Shown here: positions 1,979 through 53,130 of the stretch, piece by piece
How the letters are laid out: each line of letters opens with the position of its first letter
Position numbering within the stretch: the first letter of the stretch is position 1
Source: an uncultured archaeon
GTDB lineage: Archaea > Asgardarchaeota > Lokiarchaeia > Sigyniarchaeales > SOKP01
Assembly: GCA_964525635.1 (NCBI GenBank)
Contig: CAZGJX010000001.1
Location: 40,807 to 104,806 of the forward strand
Direction of reading: 5' to 3'
Length of the DNA stretch: 64,000 nt
Notes under the pieces: generated by a model
Databases searched by the model: none
Told to the model about the DNA's origin: nothing
The model's input: only the letters and a program-made list of their open reading frames with translations
Translations under genes and position numbers: made by a program

Positions 1979-2350
1979 TTGAGTGAAAACATCAGTGAAC
2001 TTACCGATTTGTTAAGAAACCTTGAAGCAGTTAATTCTGATATTCAGGGTAGTGCTATCGTCTCAGTCCAAGGACTACCAATATGTTCTGCTCTATCTAG
2101 AGATGTGAACGATGGAATTGTTAGTGCGATGAGTGCTGCTATTCTTAGTGTTTCAGAACGAGCAGTTCAGGAACTCGCAAGAGGTATTTTACAGAGAATT
2201 TTAATTGAAGGAATAGATGGTATCATTATTCTTTCAAGAGCAGGAGAAAATGCAATATTATGTACATTAGCAAAACCAGATGCTAGTTTAGGTATGGTTT
2301 TTATACATATAACGAGTGTTTCAAAAAAAATAGCTACATTATTAGATTAA
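1979..2350 (+). CDS. Roadblock/LC7 (MglB-like) domain protein
   Basis: 123 aa with a TTG start. Contains LRNLEAVNSDIQGSAIVSVQGLPICSAL...GIVSAMSAAILSVSERA...ILIEGIDGIIILSRAGENAIL, the usual Roadblock/LC7 pattern and size. Confidence 0.75.
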   Translation: MSENISELTDLLRNLEAVNSDIQGSAIVSVQGLPICSALSRDVNDGIVSAMSAAILSVSERAVQELARGILQRILIEGIDGIIILSRAGENAILCTLAKPDASLGMVFIHITSVSKKIATLLD

Positions 2351-2469: not shown

Positions 2470-3936
2470 TTACTCTCTTAGAGCTTGAATATTGTTAAAA
2501 ATATTATCAAATCTATTTTTTATAGAACCTACTAATCCTTCTTCTTCTGAAATTACTGAATTTATAGCAGCTTTTAAACCATAATGTCCTTCTGATATTG
2601 ATACTCTAATTGGTAAAGTCAAAAATTCATTGATTAGCATAGCGATTTCTTGGAATAATTGTATTATTTTCGGAAAATTTTCTTGTGTTTTATTTATAAT
2701 TGACTGTTCAGGTGATAATAATCCATTTTCTCTTTCTTGATTCAATTCTTCCCAAATATTTTCTTTAAGGGTAGAAAAATTAATTCCTAAATCTTCTAAA
2801 GCAATTTGAGCTCCTTCAAAAAGAAAATTTATATCATCTCTACCAGAATAATTTTTGATATTTTCAACCATTTCATTTGGTGCTAATCCTTCTAAGAATT
2901 TAATTAATAGATTATGATAATCTTTTACTACATCTAAAGGCACAAATAATAATACCATCTCTTTAAGTTGTTTGAAAAAATATCCTGCCACTTTGGCGAT
3001 TGTTTCATTTTTTAGTAATTTCTCAATAAACCTTCCATTTTCATTAAGTAAGTGTATAAGAAGAAATCCAATAATTCTTATCATATCTTCTTCATAATTT
3101 CTAAAATAGTCAAAAAAATGCTCTGGTTCCATATTTAATTTATCTCTAATAATATCAGCAATTCTTTTTTTGATATTTTCTAATGGTTCATCAATTAGTT
3201 CTTCTAATTTATCGAGAGAAAAAGATTCTTGTAATTGATCTAGAAGATCTACTTTATTTTTTTGAATTACTTCCTCTTCTATATCTGATTCAAGGATTAC
3301 TTTAGATAATGTTTTATCTTTTAATTTTAATTGAGTCATTTTTTTCCATTCATTATAATCATAGATTTTACATAACAACTGAAGGCAATTATCACCTTTT
3401 CCCATGCATTTTTGTTCTACAATTTTTATCCTATAATTATTTTTTTTTACTTTTAAGATAAAATTTGCAACACCTTGAAGCATTCCACATAATCCACAAG
3501 CCATTCCTTCTGTTTTATTACCCAATTTCGATATATTAAATGTATCTTCTGGTGATGTACCATAACTTGCACATATTGGACAGTGTTTAATCTTTAAAAG
3601 ATAACTATTATAAATGGAATTTTCTTCTGAAATTTCTTCATAATCTAGCTCTTCTAATTCTTTACCAAATACAACTACCCATAATAATTCAAAATAGTCT
3701 ACAACTTTATCTGGACTTCCAGGCATGAATTTAAATATTGCAGAATGACGTTCACATGACTCCATTGCTGCTTGTTTCCCAACCTCCCTCATTACCAATA
3801 GACTTAATTCTTCATCTTTAGTAATTTCATTGATTTCTTTGAGAATTTCTCTATAAATTAATGAATAGAATAAAGAACTAGTATTCCGACCAAATGCTTT
3901 AGATATTTTTTTCATTAACCATTGAACGATTCCCAT
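2470..3936 (-). CDS. V4R (4-vinyl reductase / TRAPP Bet3-like) domain protein with a long helical C-terminal region
   Basis: 488 aa. V4R-type Cys pattern HCPICASYG...GMACGLCGMLQGVANF...EQKCMGKGDNCLQLL. Its start overlaps the upstream gene's stop by 1 nt (TAATG), suggesting translational coupling. Confidence 0.5.
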   Translation of the reverse strand: MGIVQWLMKKISKAFGRNTSSLFYSLIYREILKEINEITKDEELSLLVMREVGKQAAMESCERHSAIFKFMPGSPDKVVDYFELLWVVVFGKELEELDYEEISEENSIYNSYLLKIKHCPICASYGTSPEDTFNISKLGNKTEGMACGLCGMLQGVANFILKVKKNNYRIKIVEQKCMGKGDNCLQLLCKIYDYNEWKKMTQLKLKDKTLSKVILESDIEEEVIQKNKVDLLDQLQESFSLDKLEELIDEPLENIKKRIADIIRDKLNMEPEHFFDYFRNYEEDMIRIIGFLLIHLLNENGRFIEKLLKNETIAKVAGYFFKQLKEMVLLFVPLDVVKDYHNLLIKFLEGLAPNEMVENIKNYSGRDDINFLFEGAQIALEDLGINFSTLKENIWEELNQERENGLLSPEQSIINKTQENFPKIIQLFQEIAMLINEFLTLPIRVSISEGHYGLKAAINSVISEEEGLVGSIKNRFDNIFNNIQALRE

Positions 3937-4654: not shown

Positions 4655-5040
4655 TTACATTTGTTCTATAATTGCTCTCAACATATCTTCTCCACATGCT
4701 CCCACCATTTTTCCATTTTGTATATGATTTTGACCATTTACTTCTATATTTTTTTCTATTAATTCCCCATCTTTGAAAAACAACAGGGTTGGGATTGCGT
4801 GTATATTAAACATATTACCCAATGGTCTATTTTGATCTAAATCAACTTGTATTATATTTATTAATCCTTCATCTCTTAGCTTATGTAAAATTGGTGTGAT
4901 GAACTTTCATGATGATTTATCTAATTATTAAATCATTTGCATGGTCCGCACCAAACAGTATAAATATCTATGATAAGCTTTCCTTTTTTCATTTCCTCTG
5001 TAACTGGAATGTTCACATCTTTTAATTTATCGATATTCAT
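4655..5040 (-). CDS. trx: Thioredoxin, interrupted by a 32-nt BHB-type insert (117 aa if spliced; pseudogene if not)
   Basis: Not in the ORF track because it is split. Exon 1 (5040..4938) reads MNIDKLKDVNIPVTEEMKKGKLIIDIYTVWCGPCK then TGA. Exon 2 (4905..4655, a different frame) reads (K)FITPILHKLRDEG...IHAIPTLLFFKDGE...-stop. The join gives the canonical WCGPCKxIxPxL. Confidence 0.8.
4906..4937 (-). other. Candidate bulge-helix-bulge (BHB) intron in the thioredoxin mRNA, 32 nt
   Basis: RNA fold drawn by eye. Outer helix GGAC/GUUC, central helix CAUG/CAUG, 3-nt bulges CAA and AAA, inner 8-bp helix AUGAUUUA/UAAAUCAU (4912..4919 / 4929..4936 on +) with a 9-nt loop. Canonical cuts excise 32 nt and restore the frame. 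Confidence 0.65.
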
Positions 5041-20050: not shown

Positions 20051-21379
20051 TTAATATGCACTTCCTTTCTTTTTTGCTTCTAAATAGTTATTTATTACTT
20101 GATTCATCATATCATCAGGACCAACTGTAATAAGATTAATTCCAAGCCTTCGAGCTTCTTGTTTTATTCCTAAAATATGCTCCATCATTTCTTCAGATAT
20201 TGCTTCTGCTAAGGCTTTATCTGTTGACGATAAATCAACTTCATGAATTTCAAACCAAGGTGAAAAAGGATTTATTATAATAACTGTATGACCAAAAGGA
20301 ATTAATTTTCTAACTGCGTCTCTAATTTCTTTGATACTTGTCTCTAAATCAGAAATGATAAAAATTAAGCTCCGCTTCTGATACCTCTTAATAAAATTAT
20401 CCATAGCATCAAAAATTTTGCATTTACCTTCAGGTTTTACTCTTGCAACAAAATCTAAAACTTGATAAAAATACTCTTCACCACTTCCTGGTTTTAAATA
20501 TTTAAAATTTTTTTTATTGGAGAATGTATATATCCCCACATTATCACGTCTCGTTAAGGCAATTTTTGTTAATAACATACATGCTCTAATAGCATATTCA
20601 AATTTTGTATTATCTATTGCACCCCCCGCCATTGAATTAGAGGAATCAACCAAAATCATCATATTGATATCTCTTTCAGTTTCAAATTCTCTTACAATTA
20701 ATTTTTGGGTTCTAACACTTGCTTTCCAATCGATTAATCTAAATTGATCTCCAAAAACATATTTTCTCATTCCAAAAAATTCTGAACCTAATCCTTTTTG
20801 TTTTGATCGTTGTACACCATAATTTAAATTAAGAGATCTTTTTGATCCTAAGATTTCTATCCTTTTTATATCTTCATACGGAGGATAAATTAAAACATCA
20901 GTAACACTATTTGGGATAATTCTTTCAGCAGAATTAAATCCAAGACGATCTTTTACTATTACAGATAAAGGTCCAAGTGGATATTCACCCCTTACCTTTG
21001 GTTCAAGTACATAAGAAAATTTAATTAAATCTTTTGGACCTATTCGAGTACTTATAAAATTCTCACCTAATATTAATCTAAAAAGTGCAGGATTATAGTA
21101 ATCTCTAATTTCTATAAAGTCAAAACTATTTCTCCCAGCATTTTCAATGATTACTTTGATATGTACAAAATCATCTTTGAAAATCTTTTGTTTTTCTAAT
21201 TCCCTATGAACCCTTAATTCTTCTACATCCATCTGATAATAGAATAATGGGAGACTGATAACGGCACTAAATAGTAGAATTATTCCAAAATAGACTAGAA
21301 AATAATTTACATTAGCAAACCCAGCTGCTAAAAAAAAAACACTAAATAAAATTAACGTTCTTCCTTTTCCACCTAGCAT
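20051..21379 (-). CDS. DUF58 family protein (vWA-like), MoxR partner
   Basis: 442 aa. Two N-terminal TM helices, then FGDQFRLIDWKASVRTQKLIVREFETERDINMMILVDSSNSM, the classic DUF58 signature. Confidence 0.8.
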   Translation of the reverse strand: MLGGKGRTLILFSVFFLAAGFANVNYFLVYFGIILLFSAVISLPLFYYQMDVEELRVHRELEKQKIFKDDFVHIKVIIENAGRNSFDFIEIRDYYNPALFRLILGENFISTRIGPKDLIKFSYVLEPKVRGEYPLGPLSVIVKDRLGFNSAERIIPNSVTDVLIYPPYEDIKRIEILGSKRSLNLNYGVQRSKQKGLGSEFFGMRKYVFGDQFRLIDWKASVRTQKLIVREFETERDINMMILVDSSNSMAGGAIDNTKFEYAIRACMLLTKIALTRRDNVGIYTFSNKKNFKYLKPGSGEEYFYQVLDFVARVKPEGKCKIFDAMDNFIKRYQKRSLIFIISDLETSIKEIRDAVRKLIPFGHTVIIINPFSPWFEIHEVDLSSTDKALAEAISEEMMEHILGIKQEARRLGINLITVGPDDMMNQVINNYLEAKKKGSAY

Positions 21380-21455: not shown

Positions 21456-22467
21456 TTAAATTGGAACTGGAATTTCCTCCATAATATTTTTTATAACAGC
21501 TCTGACGTCAAGACCTTCTAATTCTGCTTCTGGTTTTAATAACAGACGATGATTCAATGCAGGGACAGTTAATGCTCTTACATCATCAGGAGTTACATAA
21601 GTTCTTCCTAAGATCGCAGCTCTTGCCTTAGAGCATTTCATTAGTACTAAACTTGCTCTAGGACCACATCCTAATCCAATTTGAGGATGGTTTCTTGTTT
21701 TAAGAATTATATCTCTAATATATTTTAGAATTCTCTCATCGATATATACTTGATTTACCAAATTCTGAGCAGCAAGTATTTCTGGTCCACTAGTGATACG
21801 TTGGACAGTTGGTGAGTCTCCAGACAATTGTCGTCTCATGATTTCAACTTCTTCATCATGTTCTGGATAATCCAGCCATAATTTAAACAAAAATCTATCA
21901 ACCTGAGCTTCAGGTAATGGATAAGTCCCTTCCATCTCTACAGGATTCTCTGTTGCTATTACCATAAATGGTTTTTCGAGTTCCAAGGTTTGACCTTCTA
22001 TTGTAATTTGCCGTTCAGCCATGGCTTCAAGGAGTGCTGCTTGTGTTTTAGGAGCACTTCTATTAATTTCATCCGCTAATACGATGTTTGCAAATAAAGG
22101 TCCTTTTTGAAGCACGAATGTTCCTTCTTCTTGTGAGAATATTTTTGTACCGGTAATATCTGCCGGAAGAAGATCTGGTGTGAATTGTACTCGTTTAAAA
22201 CTTACACCTAAAGTATTTGCAAATGTTTTAGCCATTACTGTTTTACCTAGTCCCGGAACGCCTTTTAACCAAATAATTCGAATTGAATTAAATTTCTAGT
22301 AAGACGTGTCCGTTGACAAGTAAGGATACAAATAATTGCTGAAGAATTTCTCCACATCCCACAATAACTCTACTTACCTCTGAGAGTACCTCCTGAGCAA
22401 TTTCTCTTATGGGGGTAATATCTAACTCGCTATGAGAAGCTGTTTTTATTTTACTTGGTGTTGACAT
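21456..22467 (-). CDS. MoxR-family AAA+ ATPase, interrupted by a 31-nt BHB-like insert just before Walker A (326 aa if spliced)
   Basis: The track ORF 21456..22235 lacks the N-terminus. Exon 1 (22467..22296) reads MSTPSK...[25 protein letters not shown]. After the insert comes [15 protein letters not shown]..., then [28 protein letters not shown]. Confidence 0.8.
22265..22295 (-). other. Candidate relaxed BHB intron in the MoxR mRNA, 31 nt
   Basis: Fold drawn by eye. 6-bp outer helix ACGUCU/AGGCGU, central helix UACU/GGUU (A-U, C-G, U-G plus one U-U), 3-nt bulges AGA and AAA, inner hairpin UAAUUC-AAUUC-GAAUUA. Canonical cuts excise 31 nt and give CUA-GAA-GGC (L-E-G). Confidence 0.5.
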
Positions 22468-22549: not shown

Positions 22550-24319
22550 TTACATATTGTTTACAACCCATTCCATTTCAAAGAATAGGTCTTCAAATTC
22601 TATTTCATTTTTAATTTTTAATTTTCCTACTTTTAAATTTAACATATTATCAATAAAACGTGATATTCTCTTTACTTTATTCCTTGTGATATTTGGATCT
22701 TTTCGTTGAACCAAATCAATTACGTTTTTTGTAGTTATTTTCATATCTCCTAATTGAGCATGTAATTTTCTATCCAATCTTCGATTAAGTAAAGTGAGTG
22801 CTTTATTAAATTGTCTCTTTTCATGATACCACTCTATTTTTTTTGCAAAAAATGATGAGGTTCTAAATCTCATTTTTTCCTCTTTTTTTTCTTCTTTTTC
22901 TATTTTCTTTTTCTCAGCTTTCTTTCCTTTTTTAGGTAGATACCTTCTTAAAGAATAAATAGCAAGTAAAGGATAAATCCAGGCCGTAATTGGATTTGTA
23001 CTTAGATGTATAACATATTGTAATACAATTCCATAAATTCCAGCGGAACTTAAATCTCTTGATTGTTCAGGGCGAATATGTGCTTCATCAAAAGCTATAA
23101 CCCAATCATCTGGACCTTCATTATATGTAAGCCACTCTATTACATTCATTGCTAATTGTTTATTATCATAACCACCTCGATCAATTAGCTCATTATTCCA
23201 TAAACTTGCATCAGAAGAAACAAATATACGCGATTTAGTTGTCTCTTTTGCTAGGAAAACGGCAGGTGTAATTGGGTAACCTAATGGAATCTTCAATAAA
23301 TCGGGATCAACATCACCAAGAAATGAAGACATAAAAGATAAATCTATAAAATCATCATTAAAATCATATTTTTTATCCCCATTTTTATCAACAAAACTAT
23401 ATTTTCCACTTGCTTCACCGACTAATTTCCATCCAAAAGCAGAAATTAAAGGATCTCCTACTGCTGCTGATGCTTTTGAAAGAATAACTTGATTAACATT
23501 ATCAGTTAGGCCTTGATAATTATACAATTGAGTTATTTTTGGAAATTCGGGAGTTGTGTCATATGATTCATTATCTCTTAAATATCCTCTTGGAAATAAA
23601 GTCACTGGAACTAAATCAACCGGATCTGCTCCTTCATGCAATAAACTTAAAGCACTTGCTATAAATATTTGCCATAATAATTCTGAAGTAGAACCATGAT
23701 CATGACAAATCAAAATAGAATTACGACCCTGTAAAAATTCAACAAAGTATGGAATTTCAAAAATGGGATTATAGAAAGAATTGGGGCCCATAAGTATCAA
23801 TAGTATAGATTTATTTAACCTCTCTGTTGCACTTAAACTTGTCTGTATTGACATTACGTCATACTCATAGTCATTATATCCAGGTTCTCCATCTTCTAAA
23901 AGTTCTCTAAATTCTGAACATCCATTCCAACGATTGTTATATATTGAAAAATTATGATCATTTATCCCTTTATCAATGACAGGTCCGAGGAGGGGAACAA
24001 AAGAAAATCCAAAAATTATGATGAATAATGCATTTTTATATAGAGATCCTTGTGATTTACCTCTGGACTTCAATTCACGTGATTTTTGAGTTCTAACGTT
24101 CCTAATAAAAATGATGAGACCTATAAATGAAAAAATAGAGCCTAAATAACATACAAAAGGGATATAAGTTATAACAACAGGTAATTGTCCGGGATTTACC
24201 CTCTGAAGATAAATAATAAAATCTTCAAGAAAGAGACCAACTACAATTAAATAAATTATAAAAAATGTATAAAGAATTCCTTTTGAGACTTTTACACTTT
24301 TTTTATTTGTATAACTCAT
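22550..24319 (-). CDS. Membrane protein of the MoxR/DUF58/transglutaminase cluster (DUF4350-like by position)
   Basis: 589 aa. N-terminal TM helices, a large extracytoplasmic domain, a late TM helix and a K/E-rich tail. The family call rests on gene context only. Confidence 0.35.
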   Translation of the reverse strand: MSYTNKKSVKVSKGILYTFFIIYLIVVGLFLEDFIIYLQRVNPGQLPVVITYIPFVCYLGSIFSFIGLIIFIRNVRTQKSRELKSRGKSQGSLYKNALFIIIFGFSFVPLLGPVIDKGINDHNFSIYNNRWNGCSEFRELLEDGEPGYNDYEYDVMSIQTSLSATERLNKSILLILMGPNSFYNPIFEIPYFVEFLQGRNSILICHDHGSTSELLWQIFIASALSLLHEGADPVDLVPVTLFPRGYLRDNESYDTTPEFPKITQLYNYQGLTDNVNQVILSKASAAVGDPLISAFGWKLVGEASGKYSFVDKNGDKKYDFNDDFIDLSFMSSFLGDVDPDLLKIPLGYPITPAVFLAKETTKSRIFVSSDASLWNNELIDRGGYDNKQLAMNVIEWLTYNEGPDDWVIAFDEAHIRPEQSRDLSSAGIYGIVLQYVIHLSTNPITAWIYPLLAIYSLRRYLPKKGKKAEKKKIEKEEKKEEKMRFRTSSFFAKKIEWYHEKRQFNKALTLLNRRLDRKLHAQLGDMKITTKNVIDLVQRKDPNITRNKVKRISRFIDNMLNLKVGKLKIKNEIEFEDLFFEMEWVVNNM

Positions 24320-32521: not shown

Positions 32522-32648
32522 AAAAATATTCTCTTATATTGATCAACTAATCCAAATTACTTTTTTATTAAGGATTTAATTATTTTTATATTTATACGTT
32601 TTTTTTATTATTTAGAATAAATATAATTATGAATTCAGTAAAAATAAT

Positions 32649-33179
32649 ATGAGTGAAAAAGAGGATTTTAAGTTAAAAATTATTGTAATTGGTCAACCAG
32701 CCGTTGGGAAGACTAGCTTAGTTAGAAAATTTGTTTCCGGGGAATTTAATAAAGATTATCGAAGTACAATTGGTACAAATATCTATATAAAAGATGTTGT
32801 TTTAGAGGATGGTCGTAAAGTTATTCTTAATATATGGGATATTGCAGGACAGGAAAGATGGATTAGAATGAGAAATAGATATTATAATGGAACGCAGGGT
32901 GCTGTTATTGTAGGAGATTTATCAAGAAAAAGAACTTTTGAAAATATTGAAAAATTTTGGTACCCTGATTTAAAAGTACATAATCTTTTAATTCCAATAA
33001 TATTAATTGGAAATAAACATGATCTCGAAGCTGAAATCTCCAATCAAGAAGTTGAAGATTTAAAGAGAAGAATAAAGGCGGAATTATTTATAACCACTTC
33101 AGCAAAAACTGGAGAAAATGTAAATGAAATCTTCCAAAAATTATCAAAAAAAATATTAGATGCTATCAATAACAAATAA
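32649..33179 (+). CDS. Ras-superfamily small GTPase, Rab/Ras-like
   Basis: 176 aa with G1 GQPAVGKTS, G2 YRSTIG, G3 WDIAGQERW, G4 GNKHDL and G5 TSAKTG. There is no C-terminal Cys prenylation motif (the protein ends DAINNK). Confidence 0.85.
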   Translation: MSEKEDFKLKIIVIGQPAVGKTSLVRKFVSGEFNKDYRSTIGTNIYIKDVVLEDGRKVILNIWDIAGQERWIRMRNRYYNGTQGAVIVGDLSRKRTFENIEKFWYPDLKVHNLLIPIILIGNKHDLEAEISNQEVEDLKRRIKAELFITTSAKTGENVNEIFQKLSKKILDAINNK

Positions 33180-36801: not shown

Positions 36802-39800
36802 TTATAAATCTTTACTTGTAAATTTTATATATCCAGTTCTTGGTTCATATAATATCCCTTGAGTAATTAAATCATCAATAGCTTTTTTTATATAATCGCC
36901 TTCCAATCCTTCTTCAAGATAAAGGATTTGAGCCACTGATTTTCTTTCAAGCATCTTCCAGTCATTTTCCTCAAATACTTCCTTAAGCCTGGTTAAAAGT
37001 TTATCAAATTTATTTAATTTACTTCTTGATTCTCCAACAAAAATCCTATCCACATCAATTTTTCCAGTAGTTTCATCATATCCTGTATCTCTTAGATATC
37101 GCTTAAATAATTTAATAATTTCTATAACATCTTCTTTAAGAACTTTTTCTCTTAAAGCCATTTTAGCATGTGCTTCACTTAATCGGACGAGTGCATCTAA
37201 ATTTCTCGCTAAAATTGAAATGATTGCATCTTCACTACTATATTCTCCTCGCAGTTCTAAATAGAAATCTTTTATATATTTTTTTGCTTCTTTTGTTAAA
37301 GTTGGTTTACAGGTTCTTTTTGCATGCTTAATATATTTTTTTAACAATTCACCTGAAATTGGAGCAAAATTTTCTTCTTTTTCACTAAAATTTTCATTAT
37401 CAGAATCTATCATTGCGCTTTGGAGGATAAATTCTGCCATTTGAGCATCATCAGCTTTATTTGGCCGATCAACAACAACAAATATTAGATCAAATCTAGA
37501 TAATAATGAAGGGGGTAATCTTATATTTTGTGTTGGTGTTTTATATATATCATATCTTCCAGAATGTGGATTTGCGGCGGCTATAACGGCAGTCTCGGCT
37601 TTTAATGTTGCTACTATTCCTGCCTTTGCTATACTTATAGTCTGTTGTTCCATCGCCTCATGCAGGGCAGATCTATCAGCTGTACTCATTTTATCAAATT
37701 CATCGATGGCCGCAACACCTCCATTTGCTAAGACTATTGCTCCTGCTTCCAAATTCATCTGACCTGTATCTGTATCTTTGATTACCGCAGCCGTCAATCC
37801 CACAGCGCTTGCGCCCTTTCCACTAGTGTATAAACCTCTAGGAGATATATCTACTGATGATTTTAATATTTCGCTATTATGAACAATTAGATTTCCATTA
37901 GCTACAATAAAGTGATGATCCTTAGTTCCAATATCATAAACATAAGTTTTTCTTTTTATTATATCAATTTTATCTATTTCATCCCATAATATATCCGATT
38001 CTGATAAAAGTTTTAACCATTTTAGATCATTGTTATATTCCTTATCTCTTTCATTATAAAGAAGTTCTAGCTTTTTTATTACTTTTCTTAAATATTGTCG
38101 TCCTACTCTTTGTCTTTGTGTTTTAACACGAAGTTCTGCACTAAATTTCCGTAACCATGTTCCTCTACGATTAAAATTTCCTAATTCTCTAATTATATTC
38201 TGCAATATATCTCCAAAGTTTGGAATTATATCTTTTTTTTGGTATCTCGAAGTTTGAGATGCTAATTCTATAGATTTTTCTAGTTTAATTTTTTTTTCTT
38301 TTATTAGAAATCCTATTATCTTATAATATTTAATAGTCTCTTCTCCTGTTAGAATTATCGTATGATATAAATTCCCTTTATAGATTCCAGATTTTATTTC
38401 TTTAATTCCTATTGTTGCAAAAATTCCAAAAGAACATAACATATCTGATAGATTATAAGCTAAATCTTTGCTAGCTGTACTAGCTTCTATATATAACATA
38501 TTCTTTTCAATATAACTATCTCCAGTAAAATAAGCGGATAATAATCCCCGACGAAATGTTTCTGGTGTAAATAAGATTTTTGATGAAATTTTTTTGAATT
38601 TAGCATGATTTCCAAAAAATTTTTTAATCCATTTCATAAAAACTTCATTATGAATTTGAATTGTATTATCATAATTATAGATAGATACTTTATTGAAAAT
38701 GGACTTGATATCTTTTTGAAGTATTTTAACAACATCTGGATTTGTATTTGTAATTCTAACAGAATTTTGACTAATATCTCCTTCAGCAATATAAAAACCG
38801 ATTATTCTGCCAAATTCTTCATTAAGGGTTATGTTGTGTGGGATCCAATTATTATTTCTTTTTTTTCTTATCCAATCACCACTAGGGATAACATTAGGTT
38901 CTTTTTTATATAGTAATAATGTTGATTTTCCTATATTTGAGACTATTGCTGCATTTTTAAGAGATACTATCCCTTTGTTATATAATGATAGCTGTTCTTT
39001 TATCTTAAGACTACTTTGACAATCTTTTTTATTAATAAATGGAGACATATCAGCTTTATGATAATTAACTTCACATCTTAAATTCCTTGCTACAGGTAAG
39101 TAATACCTTTTTTTATTTTTTGAGAGTCTATTTGAATTTTTAATTTCACATAATTGATTTGCATCAATTAATTCTAATTTACCATTTATTAAAGTTGTAA
39201 AGGAGTGGTTTGGAGTAGCTATAATTTTACGCCCATTTTTTGTATTTATTTTAATAAGAATATTCGTCATATGACGACTAATTTCATTTATTTGAGATAT
39301 TTGAGTTTTAAAATTATTAAAATTAATAGAATAAGTATATTGTTTAGGTGAATTTTCTAATTTTAGAACTTCTGAATCTCCTTTTAAAATTATTTTAGAA
39401 GGATTTTGATTCATTAATTCATCAATGAAATCACTTATCTTTGTTAGATCCCAAATTTTTCCATTATTAATTTCTGTTCCTATATAAATTTTTTCTGATC
39501 CATGAATACTCTTTCCAGTCCCGGGATCACCTACAAATAAAACATGGATATCCCCTCTTTTATAGTTGCCTCCTATTTTTTTTTTTCTTGTTCCGGCAAA
39601 TAAAGTTAATGCACATGCCATTTTTAGATCATTTCTTCCATAAATCGTTGGTGCGATTGAACGAGTAATTTTTCTTTGAATGAATGGTTCTTTTGCGAGT
39701 TTTTCAATCTCTTTTTTCTCTTCTTTAGTTATATCGATTTGTTCTTCACTTTTATCTTCCGGATCTATATAATTCACATCTATAAATGTCTTGAATAAAG

Positions 39801-40578
39801 TAGAATTATTACTATTCATGGATGTAGCAATGACAGATTTGAATATACCAACTATTTTTATTCTATCCCCTGGTTTAACATAATCAACTAAATCATGTGT
39901 TAATATAGCCTGAATTGCTCTTGGAATCCTTCCAGGAGGTAAATCCTCCGGCACTTCTTGAACTGTAATGCTTTGCCAGTCTATGAAATCTGATTTTTTA
40001 GAAATTAGACGAAAATCTGATTTTGCTTTTGCTTTACATCTTTTATTATGACAGAAGTTAGGCCATCTTATACTTGAAGTAAGTTGTAATACTTCAAAAG
40101 CGGCTCCACAAATATTACATTCAAAAATAGCTTTTATTAATTTTGGTCTGACTACTGAACTTCTAATTGTAATACCTTTTACACACACTAATTTATCAAT
40201 ATTTTTTGATCTTAAACCTCTTATACTAATTGTTAATGGACTTTTTTCGTCTTTTGTAGTTATTCTCACAGAATACTCATCATAATTTATAGTTCCTCCA
40301 GAATGGAACTTTAAAATATTTTTAAATGCCTTTATCGCATCTTCTATAAGGATTTCAGGATCATTTTTTAGCATTTCAGCTATTTGAGAATCGAAAGAAA
40401 GAAGATCTTCATATAAGATTATTAGAGTTTTTCTACCTTTAGCATCAATATTTTTTATTTGTTCTTGATATTTATATTCTCCAGGCGTCTCCTCAAAGAG
40501 CCGATAAAAATCTTCAAATCTTTGAGTTTGATTAATGGGAGAGATTGGGCTTGATAGAGGTGTTACCATACAAAACAC
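36802..40578 (-). CDS. mcm: MCM replicative helicase containing a 545-aa intein in the P-loop
   Basis: 1258 aa. Zn finger CNICG...CHNKRC, Walker A GDPGTGK|S split by the intein, then EILKSS...SGKGASAVGLTAAV, Walker B AAIDEFDKM, and arginine finger SRFDLIF. The extein is 713 aa. Confidence 0.95.
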   Translation of the reverse strand: MFCMVTPLSSPISPINQTQRFEDFYRLFEETPGEYKYQEQIKNIDAKGRKTLIILYEDLLSFDSQIAEMLKNDPEILIEDAIKAFKNILKFHSGGTINYDEYSVRITTKDEKSPLTISIRGLRSKNIDKLVCVKGITIRSSVVRPKLIKAIFECNICGAAFEVLQLTSSIRWPNFCHNKRCKAKAKSDFRLISKKSDFIDWQSITVQEVPEDLPPGRIPRAIQAILTHDLVDYVKPGDRIKIVGIFKSVIATSMNSNNSTLFKTFIDVNYIDPEDKSEEQIDITKEEKKEIEKLAKEPFIQRKITRSIAPTIYGRNDLKMACALTLFAGTRKKKIGGNYKRGDIHVLFVGDPGTGKSIHGSEKIYIGTEINNGKIWDLTKISDFIDELMNQNPSKIILKGDSEVLKLENSPKQYTYSINFNNFKTQISQINEISRHMTNILIKINTKNGRKIIATPNHSFTTLINGKLELIDANQLCEIKNSNRLSKNKKRYYLPVARNLRCEVNYHKADMSPFINKKDCQSSLKIKEQLSLYNKGIVSLKNAAIVSNIGKSTLLLYKKEPNVIPSGDWIRKKRNNNWIPHNITLNEEFGRIIGFYIAEGDISQNSVRITNTNPDVVKILQKDIKSIFNKVSIYNYDNTIQIHNEVFMKWIKKFFGNHAKFKKISSKILFTPETFRRGLLSAYFTGDSYIEKNMLYIEASTASKDLAYNLSDMLCSFGIFATIGIKEIKSGIYKGNLYHTIILTGEETIKYYKIIGFLIKEKKIKLEKSIELASQTSRYQKKDIIPNFGDILQNIIRELGNFNRRGTWLRKFSAELRVKTQRQRVGRQYLRKVIKKLELLYNERDKEYNNDLKWLKLLSESDILWDEIDKIDIIKRKTYVYDIGTKDHHFIVANGNLIVHNSEILKSSVDISPRGLYTSGKGASAVGLTAAVIKDTDTGQMNLEAGAIVLANGGVAAIDEFDKMSTADRSALHEAMEQQTISIAKAGIVATLKAETAVIAAANPHSGRYDIYKTPTQNIRLPPSLLSRFDLIFVVVDRPNKADDAQMAEFILQSAMIDSDNENFSEKEENFAPISGELLKKYIKHAKRTCKPTLTKEAKKYIKDFYLELRGEYSSEDAIISILARNLDALVRLSEAHAKMALREKVLKEDVIEIIKLFKRYLRDTGYDETTGKIDVDRIFVGESRSKLNKFDKLLTRLKEVFEENDWKMLERKSVAQILYLEEGLEGDYIKKAIDDLITQGILYEPRTGYIKFTSKDL
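37876..39510 (-). mobile_element. Intein with LAGLIDADG homing-endonuclease domain (MCM P-loop insertion site)
   Basis: Starts with Ser (GDPGTGK/SIHGSEKIY). Block B is ATPNHSF. LAGLIDADG motifs are IIGFYIAEGD and LLSAYFTGDS. Ends YVYDIG..HHFIVANGNLIVHN/S with a +1 Ser. 1635 nt = 545 aa. Confidence 0.9.
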
Positions 40579-40740
40579 TATTCTTTTTTATTATATAACG
40601 GTTAATATTTATGATTTTATTTTAATTCGATTATTAAGGGTTAAATTTTATTAAATAGATAATAAAGATTATCTAAAAAAGAATAGAGATAATTAATTTA
40701 GTAATCTAGTAAAATTAAATATTATAAGTATCTAGTAGAA

Positions 40741-43700
40741 TTAACTTTCATTTAATTGATGAAATACTTTACAAATAATTTGATCTTGGGACATTTCACA
40801 TCTCATTTTTAAAAGAGAAATAACTCTATTTTTAGTATCATCATCTTCAACATTAATAGTACGTCCTAATATCAAAGCAATCGATCTTTGTAATTCAATT
40901 GAGAATTCATCACTAAGATGTTTTAATAGACTTGGTAATAAATTCTTAAGACCTTTTCTTTTAATTAATTCAACCATAACATTAATTATTCGATTTCTTA
41001 CATCTTTAGAGGGATCATCTAATAATGATATTATTTCATCAAATACTTTTTCAATATTATCCTGAGCAAAAATCTTTAATAATCCCACAGTTGCTTCTCT
41101 TACATTTTCATCTTTATGGTTAATATTGTCTAATATTTTTTGAAAGGGTATTTTAGAAACGTTGATATCTTTGATATCAGAAAGTAAATTTAATACTGAG
41201 CGCCTTACCCAGCTCTCATTATCATCAAGAAGAGGAATGAGTTTTTCAATAATAAAATCTTTATCTTCTATTTTATGAATAATATTACCAAGACTGGTAA
41301 TAGCCGCTTGTCTTACGATCCAATCTTTGTCTATTAGAGTTTTATTTAGTAGATATTCAATTGATTTTTTATAATCATCAATATTTTCTCCAATTCTACC
41401 TAAAATCTTTGTTGCAGATTCTCTAATAAATGAGTCTTTATCATTTAATAAATTATCAATAGAATCTATTTGTATGAATTTTGGCGTTTTTTCCACTATT
41501 TCAGATAAAGATTTTACTAAGGTTATTTTTACAGTTATTTCCTGTTGATTAAATATCTCAAATAACTCGGGCATTATTGATTTTATTAATTTTGGTTCGA
41601 TTTTAGCGATATTAGTAAATAAATTTATAATTTCATTTTTTAATTTCACATCCCATGGTTTTTTTAAAATTATAATTAGAGGTTCTACGTCAATTAATTC
41701 AGGAAATTCAGTTGCAAGCCCTTCTAATGTGGATATTGCATTTAAACATATATCTTCTGTTTCTACCTTTATTATCTTATTCAATTTAGGGATTATATCT
41801 TTTGGATACTTTTTTGCTATTCTTATTAGAGTTCTTGAAATAATACCTTTTGTTAAGAATTTTGAAATTTCTGGGATTTTGATTAAATTATTAAATATTA
41901 AATCTGGATTTGATTGATATTTTTCAACAAAAATATCTGAGATTTTTTCTTTTATTTTGATATTATCATAATTAATAAAATTTGATAATATTTCAATAAT
42001 TTTTTCAGGATTTTTATCCCATATTTTTCCTAATAAAATTAAAATACTGAGCAATCTATTAGGATCTCTTTCATCTATTCTATTTATTATTTGGTTTAGT
42101 TCAATTGCTTTTGGTTTTTCCTCTATATATTTACCAAGAAGCAGTATTGAAGCATTTCGTACTTTTTCATCAGGATCAATTAAACCATCTAATAATGAAG
42201 TAAGAGAGATTGGGAGCTTATAAAAATCTTTAAATTCTGCTAATAATTCGTATAAGGATGCTCTAACTGAACTAGACGGGTCAGTCATTAATGGTAATAC
42301 TTTTGAGATTAATTCAGATTTTAAATTATCTTTAGTTATTAATTTAATGTGTTTAATTGCAGTAGCTCTAATATTTTTATTATTATGTCCTATTTTTTTT
42401 ATTAAAATCTCAGTAGGAATAGTGGTTGATGATTTAGATAATAGTTTTATTAGTTCAATTTGAATATTACTGTCTGGATTGTTTAATAACTCTTGAATGT
42501 TTAATTCTTGAATCAGGTCTTTATTATATTCTATTAATCTTGAAATGATTTTTAACGATATTTCTCTCATTCTCCATTCAGGATCATTAATAAGATCAAA
42601 AAAGATACTAAGTTGTAATTTTTGAAGATGTTTTATATCTACTTCTAATAATGATCTTGCTATTGGAATACTCTTATCATAATTAGGCGAATATAAAGCT
42701 TCTTTTATCCAAATTGCTATACTATTAGGTGAATCTTTAAGAAGTTGAGTAAAGATTCTATAACAAATCCTTCGTGTTTTAGCATCTGGATCACATATCC
42801 CATCAAATAAAGGATTTTTATATTTCACCTTATTTATATCATATTCTTTTTTCAGAGGTATCCTTTCATACATATTAATTAAAGTTTGTTCAGCATATTT
42901 TTGAATCTTAAGATCACTACTTTTAATAAAATTAAAGAGAGGGATTGGATCAAATTTTTGGCCACATTCTGTAATCTTAGAATGATATAAATTAATAGAG
43001 AAACTATTTTTTTTATTAATAAAATAATATAAAATAAAAATAACAATAAATATTTCTTCTATAACTGCAGGTATTGCAAATAATGGAAAATTAATAGGAA
43101 TAGGGATTGGTTTTGTTAATACCCAAGCATTTAAAGTTTCTGTTAATTTTTTAATATTTACAATTAGGAAATTTACAAATATATTTATTCCAACTGCAGC
43201 CATAAGATAAGCAGCAAAATAGATATCTATACCTCTATATTTTATCTTTCTTCCCCAAAATCGAGTAAAATATCCAATTACTCCAAAAAGTAAAGTAATA
43301 AATACCATTCCAGAATAAGAATATGTTGAGATTGCTAAAGATCCTGTAAATAGAAAATTTAAAGTTTGTATCATAGAAACCCATTGCCAAACAAAAACAA
43401 ATAACATAAAACCAATAAGTATTCTTGGTAATGGATCATTAGCAAATTCATTTAATGATCTCTTCGAATCTTCAAATCCAAGAAAGAGAGATCTATTTAA
43501 ATCAGGTAAATGAAAAAAGGAATTTGTAATTCCAGCAATATATCCCTTTGCGCCAAAATAGGTTAAGATCATCATTGGATAGATTAAAAACCAAGTTATC
43601 CAAACAATTATCAAGGGTACTCCTAAAAATGATATTATGATGGGTGGAATTATAAAGACACCTATATATAGAGAAATAGCGATAAATACAGAAAGAATTT

Positions 43701-44109
43701 TTGAATTAAATCGGGCAATAATATTTTTTCCCAAGATTTTATGAAATATCGTAAGCCCTTCATGTGATTTTGAACTCATAGCAATGAATATAAAATCAAT
43801 TAATGGATATATAGAAATATATCCCAAACATAATGCTATTGGTATGGATAACATTAGAGGATTAATATCCTCTTGAGGTTTAATTGTACTCAATTCCCAA
43901 AGTTCAGGAGATTTTATAGCAAATATAAATGCCATCACCATTACAATCATAAGTGCCATACTAAAAACAATACCATAAAAAACACATAATAATCCATCTT
44001 TTAGAGAGAATTCTCCCTTTTTTACTAAATTGACTTGTTTATATATGATAAAGAATCCTAAAATGGCAAAAATAAAGAATATAATAAATAAAATTATTTC
44101 AGCAATCAA
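40741..44109 (-). CDS. Polytopic membrane protein fused to a ~750-aa HEAT/PBS-lyase-like repeat array
   Basis: 1122 aa. About 10 N-terminal TM helices, then repeated D-P/K-D-x-x-V-R units (DPDAKTRR, DPEWRMRE, DPSSSVRA, DPDEKVRN, DKDSFIRE, DKDWIVRQ, DNESWVRR, HKDENVRE, DPSKDVRN). Confidence 0.65.
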   Translation of the reverse strand: MIAEIILFIIFFIFAILGFFIIYKQVNLVKKGEFSLKDGLLCVFYGIVFSMALMIVMVMAFIFAIKSPELWELSTIKPQEDINPLMLSIPIALCLGYISIYPLIDFIFIAMSSKSHEGLTIFHKILGKNIIARFNSKILSVFIAISLYIGVFIIPPIIISFLGVPLIIVWITWFLIYPMMILTYFGAKGYIAGITNSFFHLPDLNRSLFLGFEDSKRSLNEFANDPLPRILIGFMLFVFVWQWVSMIQTLNFLFTGSLAISTYSYSGMVFITLLFGVIGYFTRFWGRKIKYRGIDIYFAAYLMAAVGINIFVNFLIVNIKKLTETLNAWVLTKPIPIPINFPLFAIPAVIEEIFIVIFILYYFINKKNSFSINLYHSKITECGQKFDPIPLFNFIKSSDLKIQKYAEQTLINMYERIPLKKEYDINKVKYKNPLFDGICDPDAKTRRICYRIFTQLLKDSPNSIAIWIKEALYSPNYDKSIPIARSLLEVDIKHLQKLQLSIFFDLINDPEWRMREISLKIISRLIEYNKDLIQELNIQELLNNPDSNIQIELIKLLSKSSTTIPTEILIKKIGHNNKNIRATAIKHIKLITKDNLKSELISKVLPLMTDPSSSVRASLYELLAEFKDFYKLPISLTSLLDGLIDPDEKVRNASILLLGKYIEEKPKAIELNQIINRIDERDPNRLLSILILLGKIWDKNPEKIIEILSNFINYDNIKIKEKISDIFVEKYQSNPDLIFNNLIKIPEISKFLTKGIISRTLIRIAKKYPKDIIPKLNKIIKVETEDICLNAISTLEGLATEFPELIDVEPLIIILKKPWDVKLKNEIINLFTNIAKIEPKLIKSIMPELFEIFNQQEITVKITLVKSLSEIVEKTPKFIQIDSIDNLLNDKDSFIRESATKILGRIGENIDDYKKSIEYLLNKTLIDKDWIVRQAAITSLGNIIHKIEDKDFIIEKLIPLLDDNESWVRRSVLNLLSDIKDINVSKIPFQKILDNINHKDENVREATVGLLKIFAQDNIEKVFDEIISLLDDPSKDVRNRIINVMVELIKRKGLKNLLPSLLKHLSDEFSIELQRSIALILGRTINVEDDDTKNRVISLLKMRCEMSQDQIICKVFHQLNES

Positions 44110-44236
44110 TATAATTCACGGAAATTAGTAATATCTAAATAAAAAATTATATTTTAATTTTTCAATTAGTATTATAATAAAGTTACATTAAAGATATAAA
44201 ATTATTTTAAATTATAAAAACTATTGAGTTGGAAAA

Positions 44237-44869: not shown

Positions 44870-45265
44870 TTAACTTTTTAAATTTTGTGATATATTTTTC
44901 GCTCTTTTAGCTATTTTTTTATTTGGATTATTTAATAAATTATCCAAGAATGGAGAAATATGATTAGCTGCTTTAACATTTGATTCGGATAATTCTTGAA
45001 ATTTTTCAAGAATTGAAATTATTTCGTCCTGATCATTATTTTCAAAAACTTTCTTTAATTTAGGAATTGCTATCGAGGTTAAAATCTCATCTAAATATTT
45101 AGAAATTTCATTTTGGACTTTATCATCACGATAACTTCTAAGTTTGTTATTTCGGATATATTCCACAAATATAAAAGATAATTCAATTGGCCAATTTTGT
45201 ATCTTTTCTTCTTCAATTAATTGAATCACTCCTCCATTTTCTTTATAGAATATTTTCATATCCAA
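44870..45265 (-). CDS. Hypothetical helical protein, last gene of the top6B-top6A operon
   Basis: 131 aa. Its start overlaps the top6A stop by 10 nt. No recognisable motif. Confidence 0.45.
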   Translation of the reverse strand: MDMKIFYKENGGVIQLIEEEKIQNWPIELSFIFVEYIRNNKLRSYRDDKVQNEISKYLDEILTSIAIPKLKKVFENNDQDEIISILEKFQELSESNVKAANHISPFLDNLLNNPNKKIAKRAKNISQNLKS

Positions 45266-46452
45266 TCACCAGTTGTCAATTTTTCAGGTAAATATGTCTC
45301 AGTTAGAAAATCAATTCCTTTTGAAGAAAAAGCTTGTATTTCTGCTTTTGTTTTTAATTTAATAGATAATTTTATATCTTCTTCCCAATTTTTATTTTTC
45401 TTTACAAAATCTTCTTTTAACATATCATTAGCACGTTTTAAGTCCTGTTTTGTCATTTTTAGTCGTACATCATTTTTTATCTTATAAGTGTCTAAATCTC
45501 TGGTCAAAACCCCAAGTAATTTAATATTGGGGGTTGCAAGAAATGGTGTTTCATAGCTTAAGCGTTTAGATCCCCTTAAATATACAGAGTGAATATAATG
45601 ACCATAAGGATCACTATCAACTAAGGTAAATGCAGGAAGATTTAATTCTTTAGTTAATCTTTTTAAGAACATACGGGTTGCCACGTTTCCAACACCTTGA
45701 GCAGTCAATAAAATACATGGATATGTACGCCAAAATCGAACTTCAGCTAAATCCATCATTGCTGCACTTTTTTCAATTACTAATATAAATTCAGCATCAG
45801 ATTCAATTATCTCAATTTCATCCAACATGGGGGATATTGTCCAAGCCCCACTTCCTTGATTCTCAAGATCAATAATATCATTTTTATCTCTGATTCGTAA
45901 TCTTCCTACACATGAACCTCTCGGATTGGCAACTATATGAGTGGCATTTCTTGTTGTATAGAGCATCGTTGCAGCATCTTCTATACTTTTATCACTATTT
46001 TTTTGTTCTTTAAATAAATCAACGTCCATATAAAAAACATGTCTTTTTGTGATATGTCGGTTTTTTTTCAATAACTCATGGACTACTTCGAGAATTTTCA
46101 TTAGGCGAGTAATATCTGCTACACTTGTAAGTGTATGAAATTGTTTTTCCATGATTTGTTTTCCTAGTAGTAATAAATCATTTTCTTCATCCCATATAAT
46201 ATTCGAACTTGCTCTAGAAGGTAAATGGAAAGAGGGTTTCCCATTTTCAAATATTTTTTCAATTAAATCATCAATTAATTTATATAATCGATTTAATGTG
46301 TCTTTTCTGTTGAGATCATCAATTTTCACTGTGTTTGGAGGGAGATTAATACTAAGATTTTCTAATCTCCTTTCTAAATAACTTTTAAATAACTCTTTAG
46401 TTGCTTTTAAATCATATTCTTTAATCTTTAATCTATTTTCCATATATTTCAC
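45256..46452 (-). CDS. top6A: DNA topoisomerase VI subunit A (Spo11 family)
   Basis: 398 aa containing RHVFYMD (catalytic Tyr region), Toprim ILVIEKSAAMMDL, and VDSDPYGHYI. The track start is GTG 46452. ATG 46443 (MENRLK...) sits 7 nt after a GGUGA SD-like motif and may be the true start. Confidence 0.9.
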   Translation of the reverse strand: MKYMENRLKIKEYDLKATKELFKSYLERRLENLSINLPPNTVKIDDLNRKDTLNRLYKLIDDLIEKIFENGKPSFHLPSRASSNIIWDEENDLLLLGKQIMEKQFHTLTSVADITRLMKILEVVHELLKKNRHITKRHVFYMDVDLFKEQKNSDKSIEDAATMLYTTRNATHIVANPRGSCVGRLRIRDKNDIIDLENQGSGAWTISPMLDEIEIIESDAEFILVIEKSAAMMDLAEVRFWRTYPCILLTAQGVGNVATRMFLKRLTKELNLPAFTLVDSDPYGHYIHSVYLRGSKRLSYETPFLATPNIKLLGVLTRDLDTYKIKNDVRLKMTKQDLKRANDMLKEDFVKKNKNWEEDIKLSIKLKTKAEIQAFSSKGIDFLTETYLPEKLTTGDWI

Positions 46453-46453
46453 C

Positions 46454-49612: not shown

Positions 49613-50017
49613 AAACTGTGCTATTGTTCCTTGTTTTATTTGTCCTTCCTCTTCATCACCAGTAATCTTAAAAACACCCCATTTTACATTTGAATATATT
49701 TTTTATAGTATTTTCATTACTCTTAATTTTTATATATATTAATATAGTAAGCATTATTCAATAATTGTTTTGATAATAGGTATATGATTAAATGTTTATA
49801 AACCCCACTTTCTAAGCTATATGTAGAATTTACTTCACTTAATTTAAAATCTGATTTATTATTTAAAGTTTTTTGTTGTTATTAAATCTTTAACTTATGA
49901 TGAAGAAATCAAGCTTAGAATCATATTTACTGATAATTAATAATGATCTTTTTATAATAAGCAAGAAGAATGTTATATTTACTTTATTATTAAATTAAAA
50001 TCTTAAATAATATGGTT

Positions 50018-52959: not shown

Positions 52960-53130
52960 ATAAGAGAGAGTGTGAACTACCACAACTTAAAGTTTGTGGT
53001 TTCCTACGAGTGCACAATCGCTTCTACTACGGATTGGTCTGTATATCGTAGAAAATCCTCCCATTGCGTTAGGAAGGATTCCTCGACCACAGAGGATTCA
53101 TGCGATAGGAAATCATAACGATTCTGTTTT
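52960..53130 (-). ncRNA. Putative TnpB guide RNA (omega/reRNA) scaffold overlapping the tnpB 3' end
   Basis: Inferred from the known organisation of TnpB elements. The segment is locally GC-enriched and structured, and includes hairpin 52979..53000. The ends are not determined. Confidence 0.3.

Follow-up and report, generated by a model that had tools for sequence, protein, structure and literature searches.

The window analyzed here, a 64,000-nt stretch of contig CAZGJX010000001.1 (assembly GCA_964525635.1) from an uncultured Lokiarchaeial archaeon, carries a gene for a MoxR-type AAA+ ATPase that is interrupted by 31 nt directly before its Walker A motif. We consider this insert very likely to be a bulge–helix–bulge (BHB) intron that is removed from the mRNA of a functional Lokiarchaeial MoxR gene. 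The assignment draws on the anatomy, conservation, and register of the insert and on the selection acting on the gene, from which we infer both the removal at the RNA level and the enzymes that would perform it.

Read directly from the sequence, the MoxR (AAA_3) gene lies on the minus strand and consists of a first segment from an ATG at 22467 to 22296, the 31-nt insert at 22295..22265, and a second segment at 22264..21456. The ATG at 22467 starts a 59-aa open reading frame (ORF; 22288..22467) that has the N-terminus MSTPSK and a stop inside the insert. The C-terminal part of MoxR appears in the ORF list as a 259-aa ATG-started ORF (21456..22235), and an exact look-up of this ORF matched no record. 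The second segment is one base out of phase with the first and is open from just past a TAG at 22298-22296 to the stop at 21456. In an unspliced message, the last sense codon, GAA, would be followed by AUU UAA, that is, by a stop two codons on. The codons GAA (Glu58) and GGC (Gly59) are separated by exactly 31 nt, ATTTAATTCAATTCGAATTATTTGGTTAAAA (22293..22263), and runs of A allow three cut registers that would give an identical mRNA: 22295..22265, which is the BHB register, 22294..22264, and 22293..22263. The resulting gene structure is as follows.

22296..22467, minus strand: MoxR exon 1, from the ATG to the G of the split Glu58 codon (G/AA), MSTPSK...LLVNGHVLL(E)
22265..22295, minus strand: predicted BHB intron, 31 nt, AAAUUUAAUUCAAUUCGAAUUAUUUGGUUAA
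21456..22264, minus strand: MoxR exon 2, from the AA of Glu58 through GGC GUU CCG (GVPGLGKT, Walker A) to the stop codon

The predicted spliced junction, 22296/22264, reads CUUACUAG followed directly by AAGGCGUU. The spliced product is a protein of 326 aa in which the Pfam AAA_3 domain is matched from 1 to 131 of 131 positions in a single stretch over the junction (E = 1e-64), followed by AAA_lid_2. An earlier, sequence-only reading of this DNA had proposed that the annotated MoxR ORF lacks its N-terminus and that the frame opening at ATG 22467 supplies it, that exactly 31 nt are extra with a position ambiguous by up to 2 nt owing to flanking A residues, and that excision of 22295..22265 restores L-E-G. 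These proposals agree with the gene structure, the equivalent registers, and the AAA_3 domain that is uninterrupted after removal. Its further claim, that family members read the P-loop motif without a break, is borne out by the approximately 155 orthologues that read GHVLLE/GVPGLGKT uninterrupted (here and below, a slash in a protein motif marks the insertion point); GHVLLEGVPGLG is invariant in 160/160 aligned orthologues.

The RNA surrounding the insert can be folded as a BHB in the 22295..22265 register. The helices and bulges named by the sequence-only reading (ACGUCU/AGGCGU, UACU/GGUU, AGA/AAA, and an inner hairpin) were all found, and they are listed here with the predicted cut marked by a caret.

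22302..22307, minus strand: outer helix h, 5′ strand ACGUCU, in exon 1; pairs with 22258-22263 at 6/6 positions and is present in the minimum free energy (MFE) structure
22258..22263, minus strand: outer helix h, 3′ strand AGGCGU, in exon 2
22298..22301, minus strand: central helix H, 5′ strand UACU, in exon 1; U.U plus three pairs with GGUU
22267..22270, minus strand: central helix H, 3′ strand GGUU, in the intron
22295..22297, minus strand: 5′ bulge AG^A, predicted cleavage 22296/22295; absent from the MFE structure
22264..22266, minus strand: 3′ bulge AA^A, predicted cleavage 22265/22264; a bulge of 3 nt shifted by one base in the MFE structure
22271..22294, minus strand: inner helix h′ and hairpin, in which AA/UU is followed by a minor internal loop and then by a stem of 6 bp, UAAUUC/GAAUUA (22290-22285 with 22279-22274), that ends in the loop AAUUC

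Against shuffled sequences, of which 0/200 were as stable, the fold of the 71-nt region scores z = -4.2. A BHB of this quality (central helix at least 3/4, outer helix 6/6, inner helix 2 bp) is found at a rate of 1.4e-4 per combination of site and length in the AT-rich window, which has a G+C content of 25-32%; the chance for the three admissible registers at n = 31 is about 4e-4. A window-wide BHB scan with relaxed settings was useless as a detector, giving many spurious ORF-fusing matches at gene boundaries, and we kept it only for these chance rates and for confirming the registers of the MoxR insert and of a second insert, in a thioredoxin gene, described below.

We scanned the spliced protein against GTDB species representatives and JGI metagenomes, which gave 160 loci, and found further copies by a search with the 59-aa exon 1 ORF. 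The closest relatives of the window's MoxR are all metagenome-assembled genomes of Promethearchaeota (Lokiarchaeia and allies). A homologous insert of 30, 31, or 32 nt occupies the identical position in four further lineages or assemblies.

L001/L002: 30 nt, ATATAATTCAAATAGAATTATTGGTAAAAA
L004: 30 nt
L159: 32 nt, AAGTAAACTCAAATCGAGTTTTTCGGTTAAAA; L169 and L170 carry an insert of the same type (on a 77-kb contig)
L161-L163: 31 nt, identical to the intron of the window, with an identical 59-aa exon 1 ORF, in independent assemblies from Logan and JGI (SRR9707989, JGI 3300031698, and JGI 3300031624)

Exon 2 of L161-L163 is 98.5-98.8% identical to that of the window at the amino acid level, and by their sequences we take these three to be strain variants of the window. 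All of the same-site inserts bring in-frame stops or a frame shift, and the 30-nt versions, which keep the frame, contain two or three TAA/TAG stops. A single register applies to all alleles: the central helix has 4 nt, the bulges are AG^A and AA^A, and each bulge is cut behind its second base. This register excises exactly 30, 31, or 32 nt, and the spliced junction then reads CUA/UUA-GAA-GGY, or L-E-G, in every allele. Length variation is confined to the interior of the intron, which is where a BHB intron is free to vary. The outer helix, complete (6/6) in the window, reaches 10 bp in L159, and the inner part comprises 2-3 bp and the 6-bp hairpin. The two-bulge geometry with a 4-nt helix can be drawn for all alleles, as a relaxed rather than a strict BHB.

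The three insert lengths bear directly on an alternative in which the insert stays in the mRNA and the ribosome passes it by programmed frameshifting or bypassing. The insert does share features with the bypassing elements of T4 gene 60 and of yeast (Magnusiomyces) mitochondria (byps), which are likewise short (27-55 nt), hairpin-forming, stop-containing, and located in conserved coding sequence. Its stop two codons past the last sense codon superficially resembles those of bypass or +1 sites, and the frame of exon 2 in the window could be reached by one +1 shift after GAA. Such recoding would, however, require a different event for each length. The 31-nt insert would call for a +1 shift, the 32-nt insert for -1 or +2, and the 30-nt inserts for two shifts that compensate each other or for reading through two or three stops. 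A shift would also add about 10 residues right before the invariant P-loop. Bypassing elements depend on matched take-off and landing codons rather than on exon–intron complementarity or a 3-4-3 geometry, and in MoxR these codons are mismatched (GAA or GAG vs AAA before GGC/GGU). Recoding would also leave unexplained both the exon–intron complementarity and the compensatory changes described in the next paragraph, and at a second insert site in MoxR only the BHB cut recreates an invariant Asp. We regard recoding as very improbable.

Under the BHB intron assignment, the predicted pairing can be compared among alleles. Over five distinct sequences, 93.3% of the cells are paired, vs 30-49% when the partners are slid against each other. 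In the inner stem, L159 has compensatory double changes at two pairs (U-A to A-U and U-A to C-G). Compatible changes of one partner only occur twice, once in the outer helix (G-C to G-U) and once in the central helix (C-G to U-G), and L001/L002 have lost one pair (U-A to C.A) and gained another (U.U to U-A). The exon codons that take part in the pairing, CAC, GUC, YUA, YUA, and GGY, are present in 5/5 insert-bearing alleles; among the 155 insert-free alleles, the same codons occur in 19%, 27%, 19%, 56%, and 42%, respectively, with a product of approximately 0.002. Shared ancestry is an unlikely cause of this fixation because L159 is only distantly related to the clade of the window. The codon frequencies thus support a constraint on the exon synonymous sites that pair in the BHB, one that would act only in insert-bearing alleles.

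The ratio of nonsynonymous to synonymous substitution rates (dN/dS) between insert-bearing genes is 0.04-0.05 at dS 0.7-1.5. On these values, the synonymous sites would have been renewed roughly once during a time in which strong purifying selection kept acting on the interrupted gene. Between the window and L004, the intron is identical at 29/31 positions and third codon positions are 58% identical; we read the intron itself as being under selection and the gene as functional. The sequence-only reading had argued that the insert is not random damage, and its view is upheld by the low dN/dS, the same-site homologues, the single register, and the compensatory changes.

The same data contradict the possibility that the locus is a pseudogene created by a small insertion, such as a mobile-element remnant, or an assembly error. 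The ORF is indeed broken and is split by gene callers, and two relatives, L164 and L130, carry stops or frameshifts that resemble decay or poor assembly. Of these, L164 (1364..2343) was left out of the comparison, as it contains several frameshifts and stops (GVPG becomes VVP-stop) and is either poorly assembled or a decayed copy; L165, a shortened or chimeric sequence, was also left out. A dead or misassembled gene is nevertheless hard to reconcile with a dN/dS this low over such a synonymous distance, with the presence of the same intron in independent assemblies (ENA, JGI, Logan, and NCBI), or with an intron that is better conserved than synonymous sites and whose structure is kept with compensatory changes. 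Nor is there any other lesion in the gene. The neighbors of MoxR, encoding a DUF58/vWA protein (20051..21379), a DUF4350-like protein (22550..24319), and a membrane protein, are whole, and therefore the MoxR cluster is not decaying. Decay of this cluster had been raised as a concern in the sequence-only reading, and the absence of any other stop or frameshift in the gene, together with the intact neighbors, speaks against it. The locus is a normal MoxR operon, and we give the pseudogene or artifact explanation almost no credence.

The distribution of the intron points to both retention and loss. At the DNA level, the window, L004, and L001/L002 are mutual closest relatives (81-87%). The closest full-length relative is L172 (ENA ERZ27271186 k141_594543, 2882..3859; best protein match P0011), which is 93% identical in amino acids and 82% in nucleotides and is syntenic. 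Its junction reads CTT CTT GAG/GGT GTT, the insert being precisely absent. In a protein neighbor-joining tree, the clade of the window, L001, L002, L004, and L172 receives 98.5% bootstrap support, and the four insert-bearing members form a clade without L172 in 0/200 replicates. As the insert-free L172 is nested among insert-bearing sequences, the simplest reading is that the L172 lineage lost the intron precisely, at the predicted splice junction, although the neighbor-joining tree is not conclusive. L159 is placed elsewhere in the same tree, and the intron therefore would be either old and often lost or else moved between lineages. In either case, the intron appears to be heritable and to have been kept over dS > 1.

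A second insert site is present within MoxR, at QFTP/DLLPAD. Here, L159, L169, and L170 have an insert of 30 nt (473..502 in L159), so that L159 has two introns in one 978-nt gene, and a different lineage, L166/L167/L168 (79-81% identity), has another 30-nt insert at the same place (approximately 712..741 in L166 and 985..1014 in L167). In L159, the site 2 insert forms a central helix CACC/GGUG with 4/4 pairs and has AG^U and AG^A as bulges, and in L166/L167, the central helix is CUCC/AGAG with 3/4 pairs and the bulges are AG^A and AA^A. The inner stem is 9 bp long in both. Site 2 has weak outer helices (3-4 of 6 pairs), matching the relaxed HBh′ type. In L166/L167, the BHB cut gives G/AC or G/AU and hence Asp88, a residue that is invariant in 161/161 sequences, whereas excision at a codon boundary would give Asn.

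One further insert, in L130, is of a different kind. It consists of 30 stop-containing nt at ATENPV/EMEGT (approximately 1996..2025), and no frame-restoring register gives a clean BHB. L130 also has a TAA (at approximately 1804) in place of a conserved Glu codon (DQN-stop-G). It is possible that this copy is a pseudogene, an assembly error, or a gene with a differently structured intron. The DUF58, DUF4350-like, and membrane-protein genes flanking MoxR contained no such inserts in approximately 150 loci, and the introns are therefore sporadic rather than dense. In L099, the DUF58 gene has a single stop that is not intron-like.

A second interrupted gene lies in the window itself. For the thioredoxin gene trx (minus strand, 4655..5040), the BHB register removes 32 nt (4937..4906) directly after WCGPCK, giving WCGPCK/FITPILHKL. 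The central helix CAUG/CAUG is fully paired (4/4), the outer helix has 5/6 pairs, and CA^A and AA^A form the bulges. The spliced product, of 117 aa, matches Pfam Thioredoxin, and both its length and its junction, WCGPCKF(I/V), are those of 117-aa Lokiarchaeial thioredoxins (WCGPCKFIAPILHKL). No relatives of this trx with more than 70% identity were found. The sequence-only reading had named trx as another case in the same window, and here too the register fits and the product is a thioredoxin. Its broader statement, that mRNA splicing is systematic, stands in part: inserts recur at at least three sites in two genes, but they are sporadic and are missing from the flanking genes in the loci examined. 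By inspection of the ORF map of the window, only MoxR and trx are interrupted. Close pairs of same-strand ORFs at other places (the region upstream of LeuRS and those near 49.7, 36.8, 26.5, 24.3, and 3.9 kb) proved to be ordinary gene boundaries.

Several observations weigh against a BHB intron in MoxR. The MFE structure retains the outer helix, a shifted 3-nt 3′ bulge, and the hairpin, but pairs the 5′ bulge AGA with UUU. The conformer in the BHB register is less stable than the MFE structure by 5.4 kcal/mol in the window and by 2.5-5.9 kcal/mol in relatives; these gaps were obtained by constrained folding, in which the two bulges and the central pairs were imposed and the remainder was left free. 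Strict hand-drawn BHB structures gave gaps of 6-11 kcal/mol, an overstatement, and constrained folding was used instead. One position of the central helix is a U.U mismatch in three alleles, those of the window, L004, and L159 (the helix is 4/4 in L001/L002), and the outer helix has lost one pair (C.A) in L001/L002. The covariation score is reached by 17/500 shuffles, and the comparison comprises about 5 distinct sequences from 2-3 independent lineages. Neither EndA nor RtcB is encoded within the window; the EndA that a cbf5-type intron calls for would be of broad specificity, either (alpha-beta)2 or epsilon2, with a specific loop. The protein collection contains no near-identical uninterrupted protein, of the kind a spliced cDNA would give, for the insert-bearing alleles, a result that is uninformative either way. 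Finally, a loosely defined BHB has approximately 9000 matches per strand of the window, so that the motif alone is weak, and it is the register and the comparative data that carry the case. The sequence-only reading had expected energy-based folding to support two 3-nt bulges 4 bp apart. This is borne out to the extent that such a conformer exists as a suboptimal fold, but not for the MFE structure, which lacks the 5′ bulge. We regard the BHB as a plausible conformer that an enzyme could select rather than as the thermodynamic optimum.

The suboptimal fold and the U.U in the central helix, as well as the weak outer helix at site 2 (3-4 of 6 pairs), could also be accommodated if the hairpin were recognized by an activity other than EndA and RtcB, such as another endonuclease or a ribozyme-like or protein-guided system. 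Against this possibility, eight inserts at three sites conform exactly to the EndA geometry, in which the helix has 4 nt, the bulges have 3 nt, and each bulge is cut behind its second base. Relaxed motifs, moreover, are cut by (alpha-beta)2 enzymes with an L1 loop, which Asgard archaea have (PMC5829648). At 31 nt, the insert also falls far short of the size of a group I or group II intron, and Rfam gives no match. For the same reason, a self-splicing intron was rejected as a candidate: the catalytic cores of group I and group II introns span hundreds of nucleotides, and the window as a whole contains no Rfam match. We judge removal by an activity other than EndA and RtcB to be unlikely.

Our preferred reading, removal of a BHB intron by the tRNA-splicing machinery, suggests the following course of events. 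In the pre-mRNA, ACGUCU of exon 1 would pair with AGGCGU of exon 2 to form the outer helix, and UACU of exon 1 would pair with GGUU of the intron to form the central helix. With the AU-rich interior of the intron folded into a hairpin, one bulge of 3 nt would remain on each strand, AG^A on one and AA^A on the other. The tRNA-splicing endonuclease EndA, which in Asgard archaea has the (alpha-beta)2 form and carries an L1 loop that confers broad substrate specificity (PMC5829648), would then cut each bulge behind its second base, and its cleavage would leave 2′,3′-cyclic phosphate and 5′-OH ends. An RtcB-type ligase would join the exons to give CUA G/AA GGC, or L-E-G, and the intron would probably be released as a 31-nt circle. 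If so, only the spliced mRNA would encode an intact P-loop motif. In some Asgard genomes, 92-95% of the tRNA genes contain introns (PMC11291895). The window contains no tRNA gene with which to compare BHB elements of the same genome, and the 60 related loci contain one, which is intronless.

The closest known counterpart of the MoxR intron is found in a different phylum. BHB introns reportedly occur in the pre-mRNA of cbf5, the pseudouridine synthase gene of Crenarchaeota, as credited to Watanabe in 2002 and Yoshinari in 2006. The cbf5 introns are 16-44 bp long, have relaxed BHB motifs, and interrupt the codon of a catalytic residue (Yokobori 2009, PMC2738675). The resemblance to MoxR is close. 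In both cases, a short intron (16-44 bp in cbf5 and 30-32 nt in MoxR) lies within coding sequence and forms a relaxed BHB made partly of exon bases. It sits at the most conserved part of the gene, at the catalytic Asp codon in cbf5 and directly before the Walker A P-loop in MoxR. Intron lengths may or may not keep the frame, the distribution is patchy with gains and losses, and the host has, presumably also in the Lokiarchaeial case, a hetero-oligomeric EndA of broad specificity. The two systems differ in their host genes, here a MoxR AAA+ ATPase and a thioredoxin, and in their host organisms, which are mesophilic, very AT-rich Lokiarchaeia rather than thermophilic Crenarchaeota. Unlike cbf5, the MoxR family has at least two, and possibly three, intron positions and, in L159, two introns in one gene. 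Splicing of cbf5 has been demonstrated experimentally, whereas that of MoxR is predicted.

Other systems are more distant. The BHB intron in the 5′ untranslated region (UTR) of Haloferax volcanii HVO_1309 (PMC7714728) is, as predicted for the MoxR intron, a target of the archaeal splicing endonuclease that lies in mRNA rather than in tRNA or rRNA. It lies in an untranslated leader, however, where no frame is interrupted, and its host is a euryarchaeon with a homodimeric EndA. Archaeal tRNA introns are said to occur at canonical and non-canonical positions, as cataloged by Marck and Grosjean in 2003. Together with the introns of the intron-rich Asgard tRNA genes (PMC11291895), they share with the MoxR intron the predicted hBHBh′ or relaxed element, the size range, and the presumed enzymes. 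In MoxR, in contrast to tRNA genes, the host RNA is an mRNA and the exon halves of the helices are codons, whose pairing would be kept through the choice of synonymous sites. In eukaryotes, HAC1 and XBP1 offer a parallel in that a short mRNA intron is removed independently of the spliceosome by a stem-loop endonuclease, joined by tRNA ligase or RtcB, and changes the reading frame. In that system, though, the endonuclease is Ire1, which is not a Sen/EndA homologue, the motif is another one, and splicing is stress-regulated.

A 2020 study named the crenarchaeal cbf5 intron as the only reported BHB intron in archaeal mRNA besides that in the 5′ UTR of Haloferax HVO_1309 (PMC7714728). Our search of the open-access and bioRxiv literature (full text) found no report of BHB introns in Asgard protein-coding genes. 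The MoxR intron would thus represent a known, cbf5-type mechanism in new genes and a new phylum, with several sites per gene.

The window contains other genes of note. Three are of the eukaryote-signature type that is typical of Asgard archaea, encoding a Roadblock/LC7 protein (1979..2347, plus strand), a Ras-family small GTPase (32616..33176, plus strand), and a 1124-aa HEAT-repeat protein resembling PDS5/condensin (40744..44115, minus strand). A 1261-aa MCM helicase (36805..40587, minus strand) has an intein in its P-loop domain (Intein_splicing and LAGLIDADG, residues approximately 413-904), which is another selfish element in a conserved ATPase motif within the same window. A Topo VI B-like ORF (46457..49702, minus strand) encodes 1082 aa, approximately twice the usual length. 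At E < 1e-5, the match is confined to its transducer domain (724-868), and the ORF may harbor a large insertion or an intein. Directly downstream is Topo VI A (45259..46458). A mobile-element nuclease is also present, a TnpB/Cas12f-like IS605 OrfB protein (53007..54380, minus strand) with HTH_OrfB_IS605, OrfB_IS605, and Cas12f1-like TNB domains.

The interrupted MoxR genes have consequences for annotation. Exon 1 ORFs of 57-61 aa have been deposited as separate hypothetical proteins, and gene callers split such genes; gene inventories and pseudogene counts for Asgard archaea therefore contain small errors wherever introns occur. If splicing of MoxR is confirmed, the splicing of mRNA by the tRNA machinery would not be a crenarchaeal curiosity, as Lokiarchaeia, which form the lineage closest to eukaryotes, would use it too, in several genes and at several sites. 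Introns that are long kept and then precisely lost would, moreover, offer a manageable system in which to study how introns are gained and lost where there is no spliceosome. A wider picture, which we hold with somewhat less than even confidence, is that Lokiarchaeia, and perhaps Asgard archaea generally, harbor a population of mobile BHB mini-introns of approximately 30 nt in protein-coding genes. Such elements would reside in the most conserved catalytic codons (the MoxR P-loop, QFTPD, and the thioredoxin CGPC motif), be kept by exon–intron pairing, undergo gain, transfer, and precise loss within short evolutionary times, and be removed by the tRNA-splicing machinery. Should this prove true, the prokaryotes most closely related to eukaryotes would splice mRNA independently of a spliceosome at tens of sites in each genome, and this splicing might lend itself to regulation as in HAC1 and XBP1.

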